The notes beneath the pieces were generated by a model. The model did no database searches, was not told the origin of the DNA, and saw only the letters and a program-made list of their open reading frames with translations. DNA of 41,043 bases from the NCBI GenBank assembly GCA_030040915.1, contig JASHSI010000083.1:1-41043 (forward strand), read 5' to 3'. The position numbers and the translations under genes are program-made. Origin of the DNA: Thermoplasmata archaeon (lineage in GTDB: Archaea; Thermoplasmatota; Thermoplasmata; Lutacidiplasmatales; UBA184). Shown piece by piece: positions 2,500-35,668 of the stretch. Every line of letters begins with the position of its first letter. Within the stretch, counting starts at the first letter, position 1.

Positions 2500-2916
2500 T
2501 CACGGAGCGCGCAGGCGAGAGAGCCCGTCCGGGCTGAGCAAACGGTCCGCCCAGGGTTCCGGCACGTAGAGGAATCCGCCGTCGGCCTCGGCGTGCCGGC
2601 GCCAGGCGATCCCCCGCTCCTCGAAGCGGGTCGGCTGGGCCGCCGCCTCGAGCGCTTCGCCCTTCGGCGGGCTCGCCCCGGGCTTCCCGTCCTTCGCCGG
2701 CACGAGGAGATCGGCCGCGAGGTCGTAAGCGATCCAGGCGACCGGGAGGGCGACCTGCAGGCGGATCACCTTCGGGCGGAAACGGCTCTCGCTCTCGGTC
2801 TCCCGCCGCGTGAAGAGGGCGATGGGCTCGCCGTCCCAGTCGATCGTCCGCTCGAACGAGAAGCTCTTGCGGTTGAAGTCGAGGACGTTGAGCTCGAGGT
2901 CGGCCGGCTCGACCAC
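2500..2916 (-). CDS. hypothetical protein (138 aa), family not recognised
   Basis: High GC3 and gene-like amino-acid composition. GTG start lies 32 nt downstream of the top6A stop on the same strand. No recognisable motif. Confidence 0.6.
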   Translation of the reverse strand: MVEPADLELNVLDFNRKSFSFERTIDWDGEPIALFTRRETESESRFRPKVIRLQVALPVAWIAYDLAADLLVPAKDGKPGASPPKGEALEAAAQPTRFEERGIAWRRHAEADGGFLYVPEPWADRLLSPDGLSRLRAP

Positions 2917-2948
2917 GGGCTAGCTCCCGGGGGGCGCGCGCCGGGCCT

Positions 2949-4088
2949 TCACGACTCGATCCCCATCTCCGCGAGCTTCTCCGGGAGGTAGTGGTCGGTC
3001 ACGTAGTTGAGCCCGTACTTCGCGAGCGACTGCTGCTCGGCCTTCTTGCCGTTCTTGAGCATCAGCTCGATCTCGGAGCGCCACTCCTGGGTGGAGAAGC
3101 GGGGGTCGGTGAGCTCCGCTTGGAGAGCCTTGACGTCCTGGTCGCTCAACTTGTCCGACGGGAGCTTGTAGTTCTCGATGTCGGAGGCGGTGACGCCGAG
3201 GAACTCCGCCTGCGGGGTGGCGAGGTAGTGGGAGATGTGGGCCGTCTTGATCGCGCCGTACGCCACGCTCGCGAAGATCCGGAACGACCAGGGATCCCCG
3301 TCGGTGAAGACCACGACGGGGAGCTTCAGCTCCTCGTTGATCCGCTTCAGGAACCGCCGGGTCGACCGGGCCGGCTGCCCCTTGAGGTGGAGGAGGATCG
3401 CGTCGTGCTTCTCGTCGAAGCCGTTCTCGGCCAGGCGGTCGACCATGCCGCCGCACTCGATGGCGATCACGAACTTCGCGTTCGTGCCGACGAACTCGAT
3501 CTTCTCCTTCTCGACGTTGAACGGGAGCGCGTACCCCCCGTCCCCCACGTCGTCGCGGCAGTTGAACTTCTTGACGACCCCCTTGCGGTTCGTCTCCTTG
3601 ATCGTCAGGTCGCCGATCACCGAGGCCCCGTTCTCCTCGGGGTGGAGGCGGAAGTCCTCGCGGAGGCGCTCGCAGAGCACCTCGAGGTCCTCGATGAGGA
3701 GGTTCGATTCGTCCTCGCTGTGGAACTTCCCCTCCTCCCACCCCTCCGAGATGTAGTAGAGCTCCCGGAGCGTCGAGGTCTTCGAGTCCCGGGCCATCTC
3801 GTTGATGAAGTCGACGAGGTAGAACGTCCGCAGGAGCATGAGCGCGCCGTCGAGCTTGCGGGCGCTGCGCGTCCCGAGCGCCCGGCCGAGCCGCCAGACC
3901 CCCTCGCGCATCTGGAACTGCAGGTTCTGCTTCGTGCGCAACGGCAGGCGCATCCGGGGAATCTCCCCCCGGTCGAGCTGGTCGTAGATCTCCCCGGCGA
4001 GGCGCTGGGTCGGCTTCAGGGCCTCGGGGGGCTCGGTCCGGGCCGGCTTACTCGTCGTCTTCGCTGCGCGCGCTCGTTTCGGCGGCAT
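2949..4088 (-). CDS. top6A: DNA topoisomerase VI subunit A
   Basis: [12 protein letters not shown] (catalytic Tyr region) and Toprim motifs FVIAIECGG and [14 protein letters not shown]. The ATG at 4088 overlaps the top6B 3' end by 41 nt. Confidence 0.93.
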
Positions 4089-6057
4089 CGTAATCCACCT
4101 CCGCTTCGGCCCCCGCGGGGGGCGCCTCGAGCCCGGCCTCGGCCGCCTCGATGACGGCCCGCGGCAACCGGACGTCCCAGTCCCCGGGGAGGGGCTCGGC
4201 CCCGAGGAGGTGCCCCTCGTCGACGCCGGCGACGAACCAGGATGGGTCGGACGCCTCGAGCTCGGTCTTCGCCGGGAAGGTGGCGGAGACCTTCGTCCGG
4301 CCGCTCGGCGGGAGCTTCTCGAGCGTCCACCAGGCCCGGCCGAGCTCGGCGTCGGTCCCGTCCGGGGCGGGCTCGAACCGGCCGAGCGGGAACAGCTCCG
4401 CGGGCAGCTCGACGAACAGCTCGAGGACCCGCGCCCTCGGCGTGTAGTTCGTGATCTCGGCGTCGAGACGGACCCCCTCCGGGGTCGCCTCGACCTTCTC
4501 CTCGAGGTTCACCACGTCCATGATCCGCGTGATCACCGGGGTGAGGTCGGGGACCGGCTTGCCGACGAGATCGCTCGTCTTGGTGGCGAGCTTGGGGAGG
4601 ATCTTGAGGATGATGTCGAACTTCTCCTGGGCGAACGCCCGGCGGTTGCGCCGGGCGAGGTGCGTCTTCAGGTGGCGTGCGGCGACCTGGAGGGCGAGGG
4701 TGAGCTCCCGATCGATCTCCGGGTCCTCGGCGACCGCCTCCTTCGCCTCGCTCGTGAACGGGACCTTCGCGGAGGCGAGGTGGACGAGGAGGAGCGCGGG
4801 CCCGATGGGCAGACCGGCCCCGCCCTTCTGCTCGAGTCCGTAGCGGCGCCAGTCGAGCGTCTGGACGGCGGTCGTGATCGCGCAGGCGCCCTGCTGGAAG
4901 AGGAGGGGGACCCGGTTCGCGAACCGAAGAAGCTGGATCGGCTGGTCGGCCGGGAGGCCCCCGCCGTAGACGAGCCCCACCTCGACGAGGAACGGAAAGC
5001 CGCCCCGGACCTTCGGCGGTCGGCTGACCGGGGGGGCGTAGAACTCCGGCCGGACCTCCCCGAGGACGTTGCGGAGGCCCCGCTTGATGAGCACCGGGCC
5101 GATCGGCGACAGGGATTCGGCGGACGGCGGGAGCAGCTTGACCTCGTGCATCGCCGCAAGAAGGGCCTCCAGGCGCTCCCCCTGGACGGACCCGGGCGCC
5201 TCCTTGCCCGTCAGCCCCGCCTTCCCGACGATCTCGCTGGCGGCCCGGGAGCTCACTCCCGCGAACTGCTTCGCGAGGAACTCCCCGAGGGTCTTCGGTC
5301 CCGGGAGCTTCAACCGGTAGGCGAGCTCGCCGAGCTCGAGCCCGTAGGGGTGAGGGGGGACCTCCTTCGGGACGGGGGGGATCTCGGTGGAGGCCCGCTC
5401 GTACGTGATCCGCGTCCCGTCCGGCTCGACGAGGACGAGGCGGGCGTGGGGGTTCACGATCGCACTCCCGCGCAGGTACTCGTACGGGGACTGACGGCCC
5501 CGTTGGTACTTCGCCTTCAGGACGAGCGAGATCGAGGTCCCGCTCTCCCGGTCCCAGAGGAGGAGGTCGTCGGCGACGACCTTCGGGAGGTTCTTCTGGG
5601 TGTCGAGAAGGAGGTCGAGGACGTGCGCCGCCTCCTCCTCGCGGACCTTCGAGATCACGTGGGCCGGCCGCGCCGTGGTGAGGCCCGCGTAGAGGACGGC
5701 GGCCGAGATCCCGATCCCCTGCTGCCCCCGCGACTGGCGGTTCGCGTGGAAGCGCGAACCGTAGAGGAGGCGGCCGAAGACGTTCGGGACTTCCCGCTTC
5801 AGGATGCCGGGGCCGTTGTCCGTGACGGTGACCTGGAGCCGGTCGGGCCCGGCCTTCGCGATCTCGACGAGGACATCGGGAAGCACGCGGGCTTCCTCGC
5901 ACGCGTCGAGGGCGTTGTCGACCCCTTCCTTCACGGTGGTCAGGAGGGCCCTCAGCGGGTTGTCGAAGCCGAGGATCTGACGGTTCCGCTCGAAGAACTC
6001 GGCGACCGAGATCTCCCGCTGCTTCGACGCGAGCTCTTCCGCCAGCGTCCTGGGCAC
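4048..6057 (-). CDS. top6B: DNA topoisomerase VI subunit B (start re-called to GTG 6057; track ORF runs to 6717)
   Basis: GHKL/Bergerat motifs [20 protein letters not shown] and [10 protein letters not shown]. The homologous N-terminus (M)[21 protein letters not shown] begins at an in-frame GTG. A TATA-like CTTATAG is centred about 29 nt upstream. The upstream part of the track ORF is Arg/Pro-rich and overlaps the C-N hydrolase gene. Confidence 0.85.
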
Positions 6058-32275: not shown

Positions 32276-32301
32276 GGACCGGGGTCCGACGCCCTGACCC
32301 T

Positions 32302-32308
32302 CTTAAAG
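32302..32308 (-). promoter_or_regulatory. TATA-like box (CTTTAAG on minus) for the 56-aa ORF
   Basis: Centre at 32305, ATG at 32275. Confidence 0.4.
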
Positions 32309-32376
32309 CCTCGGCGAGCGCCGACGGGTCCCGATCCGGGTCGGGCGCCGTTCGCTGCCGGGCGCGGACCTCTCGC

Positions 32377-32835
32377 CTACGTGGCCGTCCGTCGAACGGT
32401 GCGCTGGATCGCCGACACCCCACCGGCCACCGGTGGCTTCCAGAAGAACAGGTGGGTCCCCCCGTAGGCCGCGAGCAGGGTCCCCACGAGGAAGCCGGCC
32501 CCGAGGGCGAACGGGAGGTTGATCAGGAACAGGACGATCCAGATCCGCGCGCCGTCGAGCCGATGGCGGCTCGGGAGGGCGTAGGCGAGGAGCGCGATGA
32601 GGGCCACGAGGCCGCCGGTGACGATCATCGAGAGTCCCTGAGCCCCGGGGTCCCCCGGGAAGACGATCGAGTAGACGAGCCCGAGCTGCGCCCCGTACGC
32701 CTCGACGAGCGCTCCTTGGACCCCGATGAGGAACCCTCCGGCGATCGTGGCCACGACCGGGGCGACGGGGCCCGTCCCGGCGGCGAAGTACTCGCGCGGG
32801 TGCGGGATGTACGACGGCTTCGGACCCGCGCTCAC
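32377..32835 (-). CDS. polytopic membrane protein (152 aa, about 4 TM), family not recognised
   Basis: Hydrophobic segments VAPVVATIAGGFLIGV, LSMIVTGGLVALIALLAYAL, IWIVLFLINLPFALGAGFLVGTLLAAYG. GTG start is preceded by the SD-like GGGGGGAT. Confidence 0.7.
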   Translation of the reverse strand: MSAGPKPSYIPHPREYFAAGTGPVAPVVATIAGGFLIGVQGALVEAYGAQLGLVYSIVFPGDPGAQGLSMIVTGGLVALIALLAYALPSRHRLDGARIWIVLFLINLPFALGAGFLVGTLLAAYGGTHLFFWKPPVAGGVSAIQRTVRRTAT

Positions 32836-32928
32836 CGATCCCCCCCAGCTCCGCCGGACGGTGGTAAGGCTTCCGGGACCCGGGTCGTCGGAGGATCGAG
32901 GCCCGCCGTAGGGGCACGGTCCCCGGGG

Positions 32929-33840
32929 CTAACCGGTCGGGTCGCCCGCGGAGGGGCGGAGAACCTCGAAGGTGAGCTCCACGCCGTCCGGTCGAGGTTG
33001 AGCGGCGACCGGGGCGAGCCGGTGCGCGATTGGACCGATCGGTTCGATCTCCTCCGTCGGTTCCTCCCCCTTGGGGAACAAGGACCGGACGGGACCAGCG
33101 CGCGCGATGGCGGCGCTCCGCTCGGCGCGGAGGACCGCTTCGGCCGGCTGGATGAGCTCGCGCTCGACGAGCCCGGCGACGACGTCCCCCCAGTACCGTT
33201 CCAGGTGGGCGATCGGAAGCCGACGGGCGGCCCGCGCGAGCGATTCGTTGTCGAGTACCTGGAGCGTGGCGTGGCCGCGCTCCCGCTTCTCCACGAACGG
33301 CTCGACGAAATGCAGGCGGGCGAGGGTCCGCTCGGCGAGGGCCCGGCGCTCCCCCTCGCACTCGAACGGCTTCACCACGAAGAGCTTGAGCGCGCTCGAG
33401 GCGCGGGCGGCCGATTCGAGGACCCAGGGGAGGGCCCCGGTCCCGCTGCCACCGCCCAAGCTCGCGACAATCGTGACGAAGTTCGCCCCTTCAAAGACCC
33501 GGTTGAGCGCCGGGACCGCCGAGCGCGCGAGCTCCGAGCCGACCGCGGAGGAACCCCCCGTGTCCGGATCCGCGCCGGACTCCGGCGCGAGGCAGATCCG
33601 CCGGTCGAACTCCTCGAGGTCCTGGACCCGGGCGTCGCAGTTGATCGCCACCGTCTCAAGGTACGGCAGGTGCCGACGGGCGACCGCCCGGCCGACCCGG
33701 ATGCCCCCGCCGCCCACCGCCGCCAGGACGAAGCGCAGGTCGTGTCCGAGGCGGGTGGTCTCGAACACCTCCGCGTCGTACCCTTCGGCCGGGCCGAATC
33801 CCTCCGCATGATCTCCCGAGCGTCCCTCCTCCCCCTGCAT
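32929..33840 (-). CDS. FtsZ/tubulin-superfamily GTPase-domain-only protein (303 aa)
   Basis: T1 loop AAVGGGGIRVG, VAINCDA, tubulin signature SLGGGSGTGALP, KPFECEGERR and VLDNESL align colinearly with the FtsZ N-domain. ATG 33840 follows the SD AGGTGG by 7 nt. The track start GTG 33849 is an alternative. Confidence 0.8.
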   Translation of the reverse strand: MQGEEGRSGDHAEGFGPAEGYDAEVFETTRLGHDLRFVLAAVGGGGIRVGRAVARRHLPYLETVAINCDARVQDLEEFDRRICLAPESGADPDTGGSSAVGSELARSAVPALNRVFEGANFVTIVASLGGGSGTGALPWVLESAARASSALKLFVVKPFECEGERRALAERTLARLHFVEPFVEKRERGHATLQVLDNESLARAARRLPIAHLERYWGDVVAGLVERELIQPAEAVLRAERSAAIARAGPVRSLFPKGEEPTEEIEPIGPIAHRLAPVAAQPRPDGVELTFEVLRPSAGDPTG

Positions 33841-33878
33841 TGCAACCACCTACGTTCCGCCGTGTCCCGCGCCGCCGC

Positions 33879-34382
33879 CTACCTGCCGACGACCCCCTTG
33901 CGCTCCAGCTCCTCGCTGGTGCGCCCGAGCGCGCGAAGACGGTCCCGGGCCTCCGCCGCGCCCTTCACCGAGGCGCGGTGGCGTCCGACCGTCTCTTGGA
34001 CCTTCAACTCGAGCTCGCCGCGACGGACGAGCTGCGCCAGGAGGTCGGCGAGCTCCTGGCCGTTCGAGGCGAGCTCTCCGTACGCCTGGAGGGTCTCGAC
34101 CTCCTCCTCCCGCAGCCGGACCGGGACCTCGACGAGGTCGAGGGGCGAGGCCAGCGCCCTCGCGGCAGGGATTGCCTGCGCGGCGCGTTCGCGAAGGAAG
34201 TTCTGCAGCGCCGCCCGGACGATCTCCGAGCGGTTCCTGAACTCCCCGCTCGCGACGAATGAATCGACGAGTTGAAGCTCCCGGATGTTGCACCGGACGG
34301 CGATCCGCTCATCCTCGGGCCCGATCCGGTGGGCCCGGCGAGCCCGCTCCTCGGGTCCGTGGTCTTCCGGTTTGTCGAACAC
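33879..34382 (-). CDS. ribbon-helix-helix (CopG-like) DNA-binding protein with a second RHH-like module and coiled-coil tail
   Basis: ERIAVRCNIRELQLVDSFVASGEFRNRSEIVRAALQNFLRE is a textbook beta-alpha-alpha RHH. VEVPVRLREEEVETLQAYGELASNGQELADLLAQLVRRGE repeats the pattern. GTG start. Confidence 0.8.
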   Translation of the reverse strand: MFDKPEDHGPEERARRAHRIGPEDERIAVRCNIRELQLVDSFVASGEFRNRSEIVRAALQNFLRERAAQAIPAARALASPLDLVEVPVRLREEEVETLQAYGELASNGQELADLLAQLVRRGELELKVQETVGRHRASVKGAAEARDRLRALGRTSEELERKGVVGR

Positions 34383-34412
34383 GACGGGGTCGAGTTATGC
34401 AAATTCCATCTA

Positions 34413-34419
34413 CTTAAAC
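34413..34419 (-). promoter_or_regulatory. TATA-like box (GTTTAAG on minus) of the RHH / FtsZ-like operon
   Basis: Lies in the most AT-rich patch of the window (34395-34425), centred 34 nt upstream of GTG 34382. Confidence 0.45.
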
Positions 34420-34540
34420 CAAAGCGTAGTCGCGCGTCGAAGCGGGTTCGATCGCCCCGAGCGCCGGTTTTTCGACGTGTCGAACAAGTTCCGACCCGCC
34501 GGATCCGCGGAGGGTTCGAGATGCGACCGCAGTATAACCG

Positions 34541-34564
34541 CCCGCGCGCGCGGGTTCCGGAACC
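34541..34564. repeat. two overlapping perfect palindromes: cccgcgcgcgcggg (34541-34554) and ggttccggaacc (34553-34564)
   Basis: Read directly. They lie 24-47 nt downstream (minus sense) of the stop of the Zn-ribbon membrane protein gene. Confidence 0.6.
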
Positions 34565-34587
34565 GTCCGGGCGTGGGCGCGGACGTT

Positions 34588-35640
34588 CTACGGGGACTTC
34601 GACGACGCGAGCGGCGCCGAGCTCGCCGGCTGCGCCGGGGCGAGGCTCTTCCCGCACTTCCAGCAGGTCGTCTCGTTCGGATAGACGACCGCCTGGCAGT
34701 TCGGGCAACGCATCTCCGTCGCACCCGGGGAACCACCCCCAGCGGCCCCCGGCGGCGCTCCGGCGGGCGTCGGGGTCCCGTCCGTCGGGGTTGGCTGGGA
34801 GGGTCCGGCGCCCTTGCGGTTGCGCTCGCGGCCCTTGAGGAAGGCGTAGAAGAGCAGCGCGATCAGAAAGACGATGCCCGGATAGATGAAAACCACCTCG
34901 TAGGCGGTCGGCAGGAGGAAGAGGACCACGGAGCCGAACGACCCCGAGACCGGTCCCTCGATCCCCGAGTAGCTGCCGTCGTAATCGAGCCAGATGCCGG
35001 TCAGGTTGTGCGGACTCGCGTCGTCCTCGACCACGGCCTCAAGGTCCCACCACCAGATGTCGGTCCCGGGGAGGTTCCTGGAGTAGCTCACCACGGTCGG
35101 GGCGGCCGGGTTCGCGCCGAATTGGATCGTATCGGTGTAGAACGGGTAGGAGCTCCCGCAATCCGGGGAAGAGTTCGACGTGGCGCCGGGGCAGTCGGTG
35201 ACGTAGAAGGTGACGTTCGTTATCGTCGTGTTCACGGGAAGGTACTGAGGGTAGATCGTGGCACTGAAGTTGTAGAGGCCGCCAGCGGCCCCGACGAACG
35301 GGGTGACGAGGGCGTCCTGGATCACCGGCTGGCCGTTCCCGTAGGGGGCGGCGCCGTTCGAGGTCACCGCCGGGGTCGGGACTCGGAGCTCGTCCGTGTA
35401 GATCACCGTGAACACCGGGGCCGTGATCACGAGCGTGGCGATCCCGAGAATCGCGAGCGGCTTCAGTCCGCGCTGGCCGAGGAAGATCGGGAGGGCGAGG
35501 CCGAAGATCAGGAGGGTCAGGATCGCGAGGTACGGCCCGAGGTAGAACAGGGTCCCGGCGAGGGCGAGGACCCCGACGATTAACAGGACGACGAGGCCGA
35601 ACCACGACCTCGCGAACGTCCGCCAGCTCATGGCCGCCAT
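34588..35640 (-). CDS. membrane protein with sequon-rich extracytoplasmic domain and C-terminal zinc ribbon (350 aa; start re-called)
   Basis: From MAAMSWRTFARSW: 3 N-terminal TM helices, a roughly 170-aa domain with NFS, NTT, NVT, NSS and NLT sequons, further TM helices, a KGRERNRKG stop-transfer, a Pro/Gly linker, then CPNCQAVVYPNETTCWKCG. Confidence 0.75.
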   Translation of the reverse strand: MAAMSWRTFARSWFGLVVLLIVGVLALAGTLFYLGPYLAILTLLIFGLALPIFLGQRGLKPLAILGIATLVITAPVFTVIYTDELRVPTPAVTSNGAAPYGNGQPVIQDALVTPFVGAAGGLYNFSATIYPQYLPVNTTITNVTFYVTDCPGATSNSSPDCGSSYPFYTDTIQFGANPAAPTVVSYSRNLPGTDIWWWDLEAVVEDDASPHNLTGIWLDYDGSYSGIEGPVSGSFGSVVLFLLPTAYEVVFIYPGIVFLIALLFYAFLKGRERNRKGAGPSQPTPTDGTPTPAGAPPGAAGGGSPGATEMRCPNCQAVVYPNETTCWKCGKSLAPAQPASSAPLASSKSP

Positions 35641-35668
35641 GCGCGCGGCCCTCTCGATTAGGGCGGGC

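Follow-up and report, generated by a model that had tools for sequence, protein, structure and literature searches.

Work on FtsZ-based cell division in archaea has so far centered on FtsZ1, FtsZ2, SepF, and a few Cdp proteins, all in haloarchaea; in Haloferax, SepF anchors FtsZ2. The cdrS-ftsZ2 pair is a co-transcribed unit that is conserved across archaea (PMC7439475), the gene contexts of ftsZ2 usually include an RHH_1 (ribbon-helix-helix, RHH) gene (PMC9871819), and haloarchaeal CdrS is a global regulator of division genes (PMC8406309). Here we examined contig JASHSI010000083.1 (assembly GCA_030040915.1; all 41,043 nucleotides, referred to as the window) from a Thermoplasmata archaeon of the Lutacidiplasmatales (UBA184), which carries a gene for a shortened FtsZ homologue, termed short FtsZ or half-FtsZ herein. 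A preliminary description of the window, made from the sequence alone, had reported this homologue by itself. The locus is more than a lone FtsZ: a CdrS-like RHH protein and the half-FtsZ form a module that is conserved in several Thermoplasmatota lineages, and it is the RHH partner with its operator-like boxes, a conserved tail peptide, and a P-x-E motif that change what the locus is. We lean, at somewhat less than an even chance, toward the half-FtsZ being a non-propagating subunit that caps or adapts the bottom end of canonical FtsZ filaments, with its tail recruiting a partner and the RHH protein setting its dose. No description of this archaeal family was found in the literature searched, and FtsZ and SepF go unmentioned in the Lutacidiplasmatales paper and in its supplements.

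The layout of RHH gene and half-FtsZ gene mirrors the archaeal cdrS-ftsZ2 module. As in the Halobacterium and Haloferax units (PMC7439475, PMC8406309), the RHH gene lies directly upstream and is co-oriented, and CdrS is the best NCBIfam match of its product; a box also lies over the start codon of the RHH gene, as it does in a full-length module from Thermoplasmatota. FtsZ2 is complete, with two subdomains, and polymerizes, whereas the short FtsZ consists of the N-domain only. At 167 aa, the RHH protein here is longer than the 61-position CdrS model and includes a second RHH-like repeat, a long helix, and a terminal GVVGR, and the short module is a paralogue able to coexist with a full-length RHH-linked FtsZ. 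Among the truncated bacterial paralogues compared, Agrobacterium tumefaciens FtsZ3 (Atu_4215) is the sole one that likewise retains just the N-terminal portion. It is, however, a recent bacterial duplicate (48% identical to Escherichia coli FtsZ, without linker or C-terminal peptide) and is described without an RHH partner, whereas conservation of the short FtsZ extends over an archaeal order. Rhizobiaceae FtsZ1 and Magnetospirillum FtsZm are also conserved truncated FtsZ paralogues, thought to tune division and not to drive it, but their truncation is the opposite one: the full two-subdomain core with its T7 loop is kept, and the linker and C-terminal peptide are lost.

The short FtsZ is encoded on the minus strand (coding sequence 32929..33840; 303 aa), and its FtsZ/tubulin GTP-binding domain (33226..33753, minus strand; residues 30-205) comprises S1-S6 and H1-H6. 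It has the features of the tubulin superfamily, i.e., a PF00091 match (residues 43-178, 48.2 bits versus a cut-off of 33, E = 2e-12) and the glycine-rich T1 and T4 loops. The NCBIfam FtsZ model TIGR00065 was matched with E = 7e-19 over residues 34-177 only, at 68.3 bits versus a curated cut-off of 295.2, so that the protein does not qualify as a full-length canonical FtsZ by this equivalog. The best sequence matches among solved structures were FtsZ (E = 1e-13), as were all other strong ones, and covered residues ~40-180 only. An entry named "Tubulin/FtsZ GTPase domain-containing protein" (PDB 9pm9) was matched at E = 0.1 only.

The phosphate- and ribose-binding loops of the short FtsZ are intact and read GGGG (T1), NCD, DTGGS (T3), GGGSGTG (T4), KPFECEGERR (T5), and LDN (T6). 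Across 45 homologues, T1 GGG, NCD, T4 GGGxGxG, KPFxxExxRR, and LDN are invariant or nearly so, and a motif before S1, L-G-x-D-x-R-F, is invariant across the family. An AlphaFold2 (AF2) model built from the same 45-sequence alignment (mean pLDDT 84.7, pTM 0.74) placed a Rossmann-like S1-S6/H1-H6 domain at residues 30-205. Foldseek of this model against the PDB returned FtsZ exclusively among the top 50, with ~195 aligned columns and a query-normalized TM-score of 0.55, which indicates that half of FtsZ has no counterpart in the short FtsZ. The similarity to FtsZ thus far exceeds what chance would give. The GTP-binding elements that the preliminary description had aligned by eye with FtsZ were borne out.

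In an FtsZ protofilament, the nucleotide face of a subunit forms a complete GTPase site only with the T7 loop of the adjoining subunit. The T7 synergy motif, N-x-D-x-x-D, is absent from the short FtsZ. Profile-to-profile alignment (hhalign) of the family with 19 canonical archaeal FtsZs gave a probability of 99.7% over residues 31-225 only; T6 and the first half of H7 were alignable, a family-specific insert of ~10 aa follows H5, and the alignment breaks off in the middle of H7, near residue 225. Helix H7 with its extension (33100..33225, minus strand; residues 206-247, with homology to canonical FtsZ ending at ~225) is predicted to be continuous, the AF2 model giving one long helix at residues 210-247 and disorder from there through residue 303. 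Where the canonical T7 loop (P-[GS]-L-I-N-L-D-[FY]-A-D) would start, the family instead has P232-A-E234 (33139..33147, minus strand), inside the sequence QPAEA, with P232 and E234 invariant.

These invariant residues bear on the idea that the protein forms an autonomous polymer of new geometry through its N-domain, the extended H7, and P-x-E, with E234 as a substitute catalytic residue and the tail as an anchor. E234 takes the place that the catalytic Asp/Glu has in FtsZ and alpha-tubulin, where H8 begins; in addition, the pre-S1 motif is invariant and an insert specific to the family follows H5. We nonetheless consider such a polymer improbable: the entire bottom interface (T7, H8-H10, S7-S10) is missing, AF2 puts P-x-E in a solvent-exposed helix and not in a loop, and the motif is absent from other short subfamilies. 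To our knowledge, moreover, no polymer of a tubulin-fold N-domain alone exists. In favor of the idea, Makarova and Koonin held a novel filament mechanism to be likelier than no filaments for FtsZl-1, another FtsZ-like family (PMC2875224).

The C-terminal domain is missing along with T7. There was no Pfam match to FtsZ_C (PF12327) in the short FtsZ, nor a precomputed one for any homologue, and tblastn with six canonical C-domains found no remnant in any frame of the window. The same search found none in 59 family loci and 11 loci of other short forms, while all canonical loci, used as controls, were positive. As the preliminary description had proposed, both the T7 loop and the C-terminal domain are thus absent, and a disordered Pro/Glu-rich tail (32932..33099, minus strand; residues 248-303, with 10 Pro and 7 Glu in 56 residues) stands in for the C-terminal subdomain. 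A canonical CetZ architecture is excluded by the same predicted lack of a C-terminal domain.

Within the tail, a peptide of the form [DE][AV]ELTFE[VI] (32962..32985, minus strand; residues 286-293, GVELTFEV in the window) is kept in 44 of 45 sequences, 10-12 residues before the C-terminal end, amid a variable linker (mean column conservation 0.37), and is a candidate docking motif. The ends of the canonical archaeal FtsZs compared are similar (ELGIEVI, LGIDYII, and ELTGIPKI, the last from Methanocaldococcus jannaschii FtsZ1), although at the level of sequence this is a resemblance only. One family member, P0006 (locus L004, CAVOMG010000003.1), has a Ser/Arg-rich tail (…SSRSLRT…PRRTKR) without ELTFEV, and its tblastn match ends at query residue 282; this tail looks frameshifted, by an assembly error or a real lesion in a long-read metagenome-assembled genome (MAG).

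The preliminary description had left open whether the protein belongs to FtsZl-1, and this was rejected because architecture, motifs, taxonomy, and gene neighborhood all differ (PMC2875224). Both have a divergent N-domain of the FtsZ superfamily and no recognizable canonical C-terminal domain, but FtsZl-1 proteins are ~1000 aa long and contain both a long coiled coil and a C-terminal domain of alpha helices, whereas the 303-aa protein here has a disordered tail and neither of these. T6-H7 of FtsZl-1 are not alignable and T1-T4 carry family-specific inserts; the short FtsZ aligns in T6 and early H7 and has no inserts between T1 and T4. The genes named as linked to FtsZl-1 encode a vWA-domain protein, a distinct GTPase, and OmpA-family proteins, in contrast to the RHH protein, apgM, PAC2, FEN1, and a membrane protein here. 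FtsZl-2 was rejected as well, since it is proteobacterial and has T7 and a ~300-aa alpha/beta C-terminal region, compared with an archaeal protein without T7 and with a ~55-aa disordered tail.

A further explanation is that the gene is a decaying pseudogene, was cut short by a frameshift in the assembly, or belongs to a split ftsZ with the C-domain encoded in an adjacent gene; decay and a frameshift are also the two routes by which the preliminary description was to be refuted, and both failed. An ORF check of the window confirmed the minus-strand ORF at 32929..33849. Its true start is probably the ATG at 33840, with the stop codon at 32929-32931; this start is favored because AGGTGG, a Shine-Dalgarno-like sequence (33846..33851, minus strand), precedes it by 5 nt and because the resulting length agrees with that of the database entry (P0001, also 303 aa). 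An alternative GTG start at 33849 would add three codons. The GC content at third codon positions is 0.88 and at second positions 0.51, i.e., the coding signature of this ~70% GC window, which itself agrees with the 69% GC described for Lutacidiplasmatales. Bacteria commonly carry truncated duplicates of ftsZ, and the tail of P0006 looks frameshifted, yet the same 300-320 aa architecture, with invariant motifs and tail peptide, recurs in ~57 species and in hundreds of metagenomic sequences, the third-position GC speaks against decay, and no C-domain similarity was found in any frame of the window or of the 70 related loci, in a search whose positive controls worked. We regard this explanation as hardly credible: pseudogene, frameshift, and adjacent split gene are ruled out by the family-wide conservation together with the C-domain tblastn. 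The half-FtsZ gene is intact and vertically inherited. No second FtsZ was found in the window by tblastn.

At least 397 database proteins of ~300 aa match the short FtsZ. The best 120 homologues are 50-71% identical, nearly all are 298-324 aa long, and the named ones come from "Thermoplasmata archaeon" MAGs. With one genome counted per GTDB species, the family is present in 57 species, all Thermoplasmata, including "Candidatus Lutacidiplasma silvani" and UBA184, and the 300-320 aa architecture is common to these ~57 species of Lutacidiplasmatales-like Thermoplasmata. The family is set off by a step in identity, reaching down to 46% (E = 4e-28) before canonical FtsZ follows at ~26% (E = 3e-9), and a profile search of 1.84 billion cluster representatives gave only 21 at E <= 1e-30. 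In public annotation the short proteins are mostly unnamed or "hypothetical protein", with a few labeled FtsZ or Tubulin/FtsZ family.

The half-FtsZ gene and the gene before it make up an operon of two genes that is strictly conserved. The leading gene encodes the CdrS-like RHH protein (33879..34382, minus strand; 167 aa, RHH domain at residues 25-70), starts with GTG, and ends 38 nt upstream of the ftsZ-like gene on the same strand; the Shine-Dalgarno-like AGGTGG falls within this gap. An RHH gene is directly upstream and co-oriented at every family locus with upstream DNA, and across loci the two proteins are conserved to a similar degree, the RHH protein at 45-66% identity and the FtsZ-like protein at 46-68%. 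The best NCBIfam match of the window's RHH protein is CdrS (NF058555), at 27 bits versus a curated cut-off of 100. CdrS was also the best match for the partners in three of four other modules scanned, with the partner of the full-length FtsZ of "Candidatus Natronoplasma" reaching 77 bits. The family alignment shows a second RHH-like repeat at ~85-125, then a long C-terminal helix and an invariant GVVGR end, so the 167-aa protein may be a tandem RHH, a reading drawn from alignment; the AF2 monomer model was low-confidence and all-helical (pTM 0.34) and did not confirm an intramolecular RHH pair. The surrounding genes are housekeeping genes (apgM, Trm5/TYW2, PPDK, PAC2, FEN1, and primase) that are syntenic across species, which indicates a chromosomal, vertically inherited locus.

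Comparison of 52 distinct orthologous regions upstream of the RHH gene revealed promoter elements at fixed positions, conserved amid otherwise diverged DNA. A TATA box, TTTAAGTA (34411..34418, minus strand), lies 36 nt before the start codon (-36) and is found as TTTA[AT]GTA in 46 of 52 loci, a position that implies an almost leaderless mRNA. A TGTTCGACA box (34373..34381, minus strand), a candidate operator, overlaps the GTG start of the RHH gene, and its core GTTCGAC is at +2 in all 52 loci. A second TGTTCGACA box (34478..34486, minus strand), at about -103, falls in the window within the inverted repeat TTCGAC-AC-GTCGAA; GTTCGAC is there in 50 of 52 loci, and is found at -125 in 30 of 52. 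The element GTTATAC (34532..34538, minus strand), at -156 from the RHH start and just past the stop codon of the upstream gene, is conserved in 50 of 52 loci and may serve as an additional TATA-like promoter or as a site for some other protein; from there to the main TATA box, only the GTTCGAC boxes are conserved. The 41-kb window holds two exact matches to TGTTCGACA, both in the RHH promoter, where 0.12 would be expected. Autorepressors classically bind at the start site, where one of the boxes lies, and we infer that the RHH protein binds the GTTCGAC boxes.

The full-length Natronoplasma module has an analogous GTCGGAC at -31 and again at +2, on the start codon; GTTCGAC and GTCGGAC are thereby candidate operator sequences for CdrS-like regulators beyond haloarchaea. 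Repeated boxes akin to GTTCGAC thus recur in the RHH-FtsZ modules other than that of the window (L085, L088, and L092, before the RHH gene, and L086 at 3590-3625), and in the halophilic short modules they take the form of GTAGGACA/TGTCCTAC inverted repeats. The core common to the boxes of RHH-FtsZ modules looks like GTnnGAC.

A DNA-binding gene that comes first, a tubulin-fold protein with a flexible tail that follows, and two to three direct repeats upstream would also suit a DNA segregation module of the TubZRC or ParMR kind, in which GTTCGAC repeats would be the centromere to which the RHH protein binds, DNA would be moved by the FtsZ-like protein, and the tail would bind the adaptor, as that of TubZ binds TubR. 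In TubZ-TubR-tubC, likewise, the gene for a DNA-binding adaptor lies upstream of that for a tubulin-fold protein with a flexible C-terminal tail, and there are upstream repeats. TubR is a winged helix-turn-helix protein, and tubC centromeres are longer iteron arrays. A search for iteron or centromere-like arrays in 32300-35000 gave only short two-copy repeat families, and the two to three boxes here are at positions typical of promoters, including the start codon. TubZ forms filaments for plasmid partition (type III), and TubZ and PhuZ have both subdomains and T7, whereas the short FtsZ is chromosomal and CdrS-linked and matches these proteins only weakly (E about 0.006-0.02; PhuZ at 0.006 and RepX at 0.017). 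Neither a two-subdomain fold with T7, nor sequence affinity, nor a plasmid or phage context, as for TubZ and PhuZ, was found. With a single-copy chromosomal site in housekeeping synteny (apgM, PAC2, FEN1), an RHH protein that matches CdrS best, and the same layout in a bona fide full-length FtsZ, we consider segregation very improbable.

Beyond the family, the best profile matches include archaeal FtsZs with LDN in T6, e.g., those of the Thermoplasmatota Natronoplasma and Poseidoniia. In the top 150 profile matches, LDN is found only in the family, its short relatives, and archaeal FtsZs. The matches also include other short proteins without T7 or C-domain (P0266, P0274, P0376, and P0276), and a profile of these four retrieved many more Tubulin-only proteins of 270-310 aa, the named ones from Candidatus Thermoplasmatota, Natronoplasma, Saliniplasma, and Thermoplasmata MAGs. 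Each short subfamily carries conserved tail motifs of its own, e.g., PPVLEALKYV and LDSFLENY, and thus seems to have its own docking peptides, differing from ELTFEV. The Natronoplasma/Saliniplasma-type short forms (P0426-P0494) have acidic tails with PPV[LI]EAL.YV and a C-terminal L[DE].[FK]LE.Y. Throughout one short subfamily (P0274, P0376, P0425, P0430, and others) T4 reads GGGTGSE[LM], with Glu in place of the last Gly of GGGTGSG.

The other short forms for which the gene context was read have a co-oriented gene for 128-139 aa upstream every time. Four of five such upstream partners match RHH_1, at strengths from faint to full; the 139-aa partner has no Pfam match and matches CdrS best. The full-length Natronoplasma FtsZ (336 aa, Tubulin and FtsZ_C) follows a 106-aa protein with two RHH_1 stretches, and the Poseidoniia FtsZ a 133-aa protein with no RHH family match. 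Five upstream proteins compared, including that of the window, all align over the same two-repeat layout, and the partners of short FtsZs (128-167 aa) have an extra C-terminal helical extension that the 106-aa Natronoplasma partner lacks. In assembly GCA_048620615.1, one contig carries an RHH gene (106 aa) with a canonical FtsZ gene (336 aa, Tubulin and FtsZ_C), and another an RHH gene (128 aa) with a short FtsZ gene (278 aa, Tubulin only). The presence of both shows that the short FtsZ with its RHH gene is a paralogous copy of the module and not the sole FtsZ2 orthologue, and that, in this genome at least, it exists alongside canonical FtsZ and does not replace it. The RHH-ftsZ module was duplicated as a unit in Thermoplasmatota.

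The family HMM scored RHH-linked FtsZs at 77-90 bits and M. jannaschii FtsZ1 at 52 bits (the FtsZ1 sequence used was identical to PDB entry 1W58 at 364 of 364 positions). Together with the LDN signature, and with this FtsZ1 as the comparison, the scores favor a relationship to FtsZ2-type proteins. In a neighbor-joining tree of 185 N-domain columns with 300 bootstraps, the bacterial FtsZs formed a separate clade (86% bootstrap), and the family lay inside archaeal FtsZ on a long, poorly supported branch, with saturated distances (1.7-2.4 substitutions per site); it grouped with P0274 and P0376 at only 64% bootstrap.

Some of the sequences collected along the way have unusual arrangements of their own. 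P0262 (826 aa), P0264 (731 aa), and P0265 (840 aa) contain two complete FtsZ units in tandem per polypeptide, each with a T4 signature, and a canonical T7 is likewise present in both units of P0262 and of P0265; all three are covalent FtsZ-FtsZ fusions. In locus L078 (Ca. Micrarchaeota), two full-length ftsZ genes with differing T4 and T6 signatures stand head-to-tail, 4 nt apart (2872-3945 and 3950-4966), and may be a tandem pair of FtsZ1 and FtsZ2 type. P0427, a halophilic-type short FtsZ on a 176-kb contig, is labeled "Candidatus Aenigmatarchaeota archaeon" at NCBI, while its named relatives are all Thermoplasmatota; either mis-binning, misclassification, or lateral transfer would account for this.

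Near the module in the window, a gene that lies upstream of the RHH gene in the same orientation encodes a ~353-aa protein (34591-35649, minus strand). Neither Pfam nor NCBIfam gave a match for this protein, and by eye it has hydrophobic, membrane-like segments and a terminal CxxC...CxxC zinc-ribbon-like motif (MRCPNCQ...CWKCGK). Its homologues lie upstream in many family loci, at times with a Pilin_N/CARDB gene inserted before the module (as in L002). Directly downstream of the half-FtsZ gene is a gene for 152 aa (32377-32835, minus strand), whose product is membrane-like by eye and weakly matches DUF6114. No counterpart was found by tblastn in the other related loci, which indicates a lineage-specific insertion between the module and PAC2, outside the conserved operon. 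On the plus strand, a 607-aa antisense ORF (32452-34275) lies opposite the RHH and FtsZ-like genes, and there are many similar ones; these very long antisense ORFs are artifacts of the 70% GC content, and a filter on GC at codon positions 2 and 3 discards most of them. Scans of the window for tRNAs and Rfam families found nothing.

How could such a protein act on filaments? FtsZ subunits add at the bottom end of a protofilament, and blocking the bottom face caps substoichiometrically, as with MciZ (bioRxiv 10.1101/2020.02.25.965095). In the capping or adapting role that we favor, the RHH protein would bind the GTTCGAC boxes and autoregulate the operon, and thereby the dose of half-FtsZ. The half-FtsZ would bind GTP through its conserved T1-T6 loops and would present a top (nucleotide) face without a bottom (T7/C-domain) face, in which case it could neither polymerize head-to-tail with itself nor activate hydrolysis in a neighbor. 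Its GTP face would dock onto the T7-bearing (bottom, growing) end of a canonical protofilament as the terminal subunit, where the T7 of the canonical subunit would hydrolyze the GTP of the half-FtsZ and so time its release. The tail peptide would tether the filament end to a partner, e.g., a SepF-like anchor or another divisome protein, and overall the half-FtsZ would control, at a substoichiometric dose, how long filaments grow, how fast they turn over, and how they are attached in cell division.

The preliminary description had held that the protein cannot use canonical polymerization-coupled hydrolysis. For homopolymers, and for the half-FtsZ as the activating neighbor, this stands; for its own GTP it may not, as that could still be hydrolyzed if a canonical FtsZ lends its T7. 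By functional analogy only, the half-FtsZ would resemble the bottom cappers of FtsZ (MciZ and bottom-face FtsZ mutants), in which the bottom face at the growing end is occupied or replaced, and would be predicted to block elongation at a substoichiometric dose and to raise GTP turnover. MciZ is a 40-aa peptide that binds the FtsZ C-domain, whereas the capper proposed here would be a subunit of the FtsZ fold itself.

Several observations weigh against capping. Identity between the family and canonical FtsZ is only 26-30%, below what is usual for co-assembling paralogues. The H7 Asp that contacts guanine in FtsZ is not conserved here, as we read the alignments, and T3 reads GGS versus GAG in FtsZ, so that the top face may misfit a canonical bottom face and base specificity is uncertain. 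In relatives T4 is damaged (GGGTGSE in P0274 and P0376, GGEAGTE in P0250), and from these sequences nucleotide binding may have been lost, altered, or become dispensable in such lineages. The closest bacterial precedent, A. tumefaciens FtsZ3, localizes diffusely and has no phenotype. Short and canonical FtsZ have been seen together in one genome for Natronoplasma only, and the placement among FtsZ2 rests on bootstrap values of 64% or less for any grouping beyond the family itself. Capping also leaves the invariant P232-x-E234 and the pre-S1 L-G-x-D-x-R-F without explanation, as it does the greater length of the RHH partners of short modules (128-167 versus 106 aa).

The main rival is a role off the filaments. 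Here the half-FtsZ would bind its RHH partner and change its DNA binding in a nucleotide-dependent way, as a GTP-gated switch for division or cell-cycle genes, with contacts through, for example, the long C-terminal helix and GVVGR end of the RHH protein or the ELTFEV peptide. The two genes are strictly co-inherited and similarly conserved, the RHH partners of short FtsZs have the extra C-terminal helical extension, the operator-like boxes are conserved, and haloarchaeal CdrS regulates division genes globally (PMC8406309). Set against this, an FtsZ-fold protein has no precedent as a co-regulator, canonical cdrS-ftsZ2 has the same gene order with no such coupling known, and the AF2 monomer model of the RHH protein is weak (pTM 0.34). 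The degenerate T4 of relatives, for its part, argues against nucleotide gating as much as against capping. On balance we consider the switch unlikely, and capping or adapting of filament ends remains the reading we prefer.

A more specific form of the capping proposal is that Thermoplasmatota evolved a separately regulated terminator subunit: a half-FtsZ that would join the filament only as its last subunit, have its GTP hydrolyzed in trans by the canonical neighbor, and possess its own docking peptide and a duplicated CdrS-like regulator. This combination is doubtful as a whole. Were it true, the polymer's own subunit would have given rise to a genetically encoded end-capper of the tubulin fold, and the cdrS-ftsZ module would have been duplicated and sub-functionalized as a unit.

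In keeping the nucleotide face and a docking peptide while losing the propagating face, and in having a regulator of its own, the half-FtsZ of Thermoplasmata is a natural experiment that splits the FtsZ polymerization cycle. Were it a switch in partnership with the RHH protein, a tubulin fold would be tied to transcription. As a capper or adapter of filaments, it would represent a new class of endogenous cytoskeletal regulator and a tool for probing the polarity of archaeal filaments.

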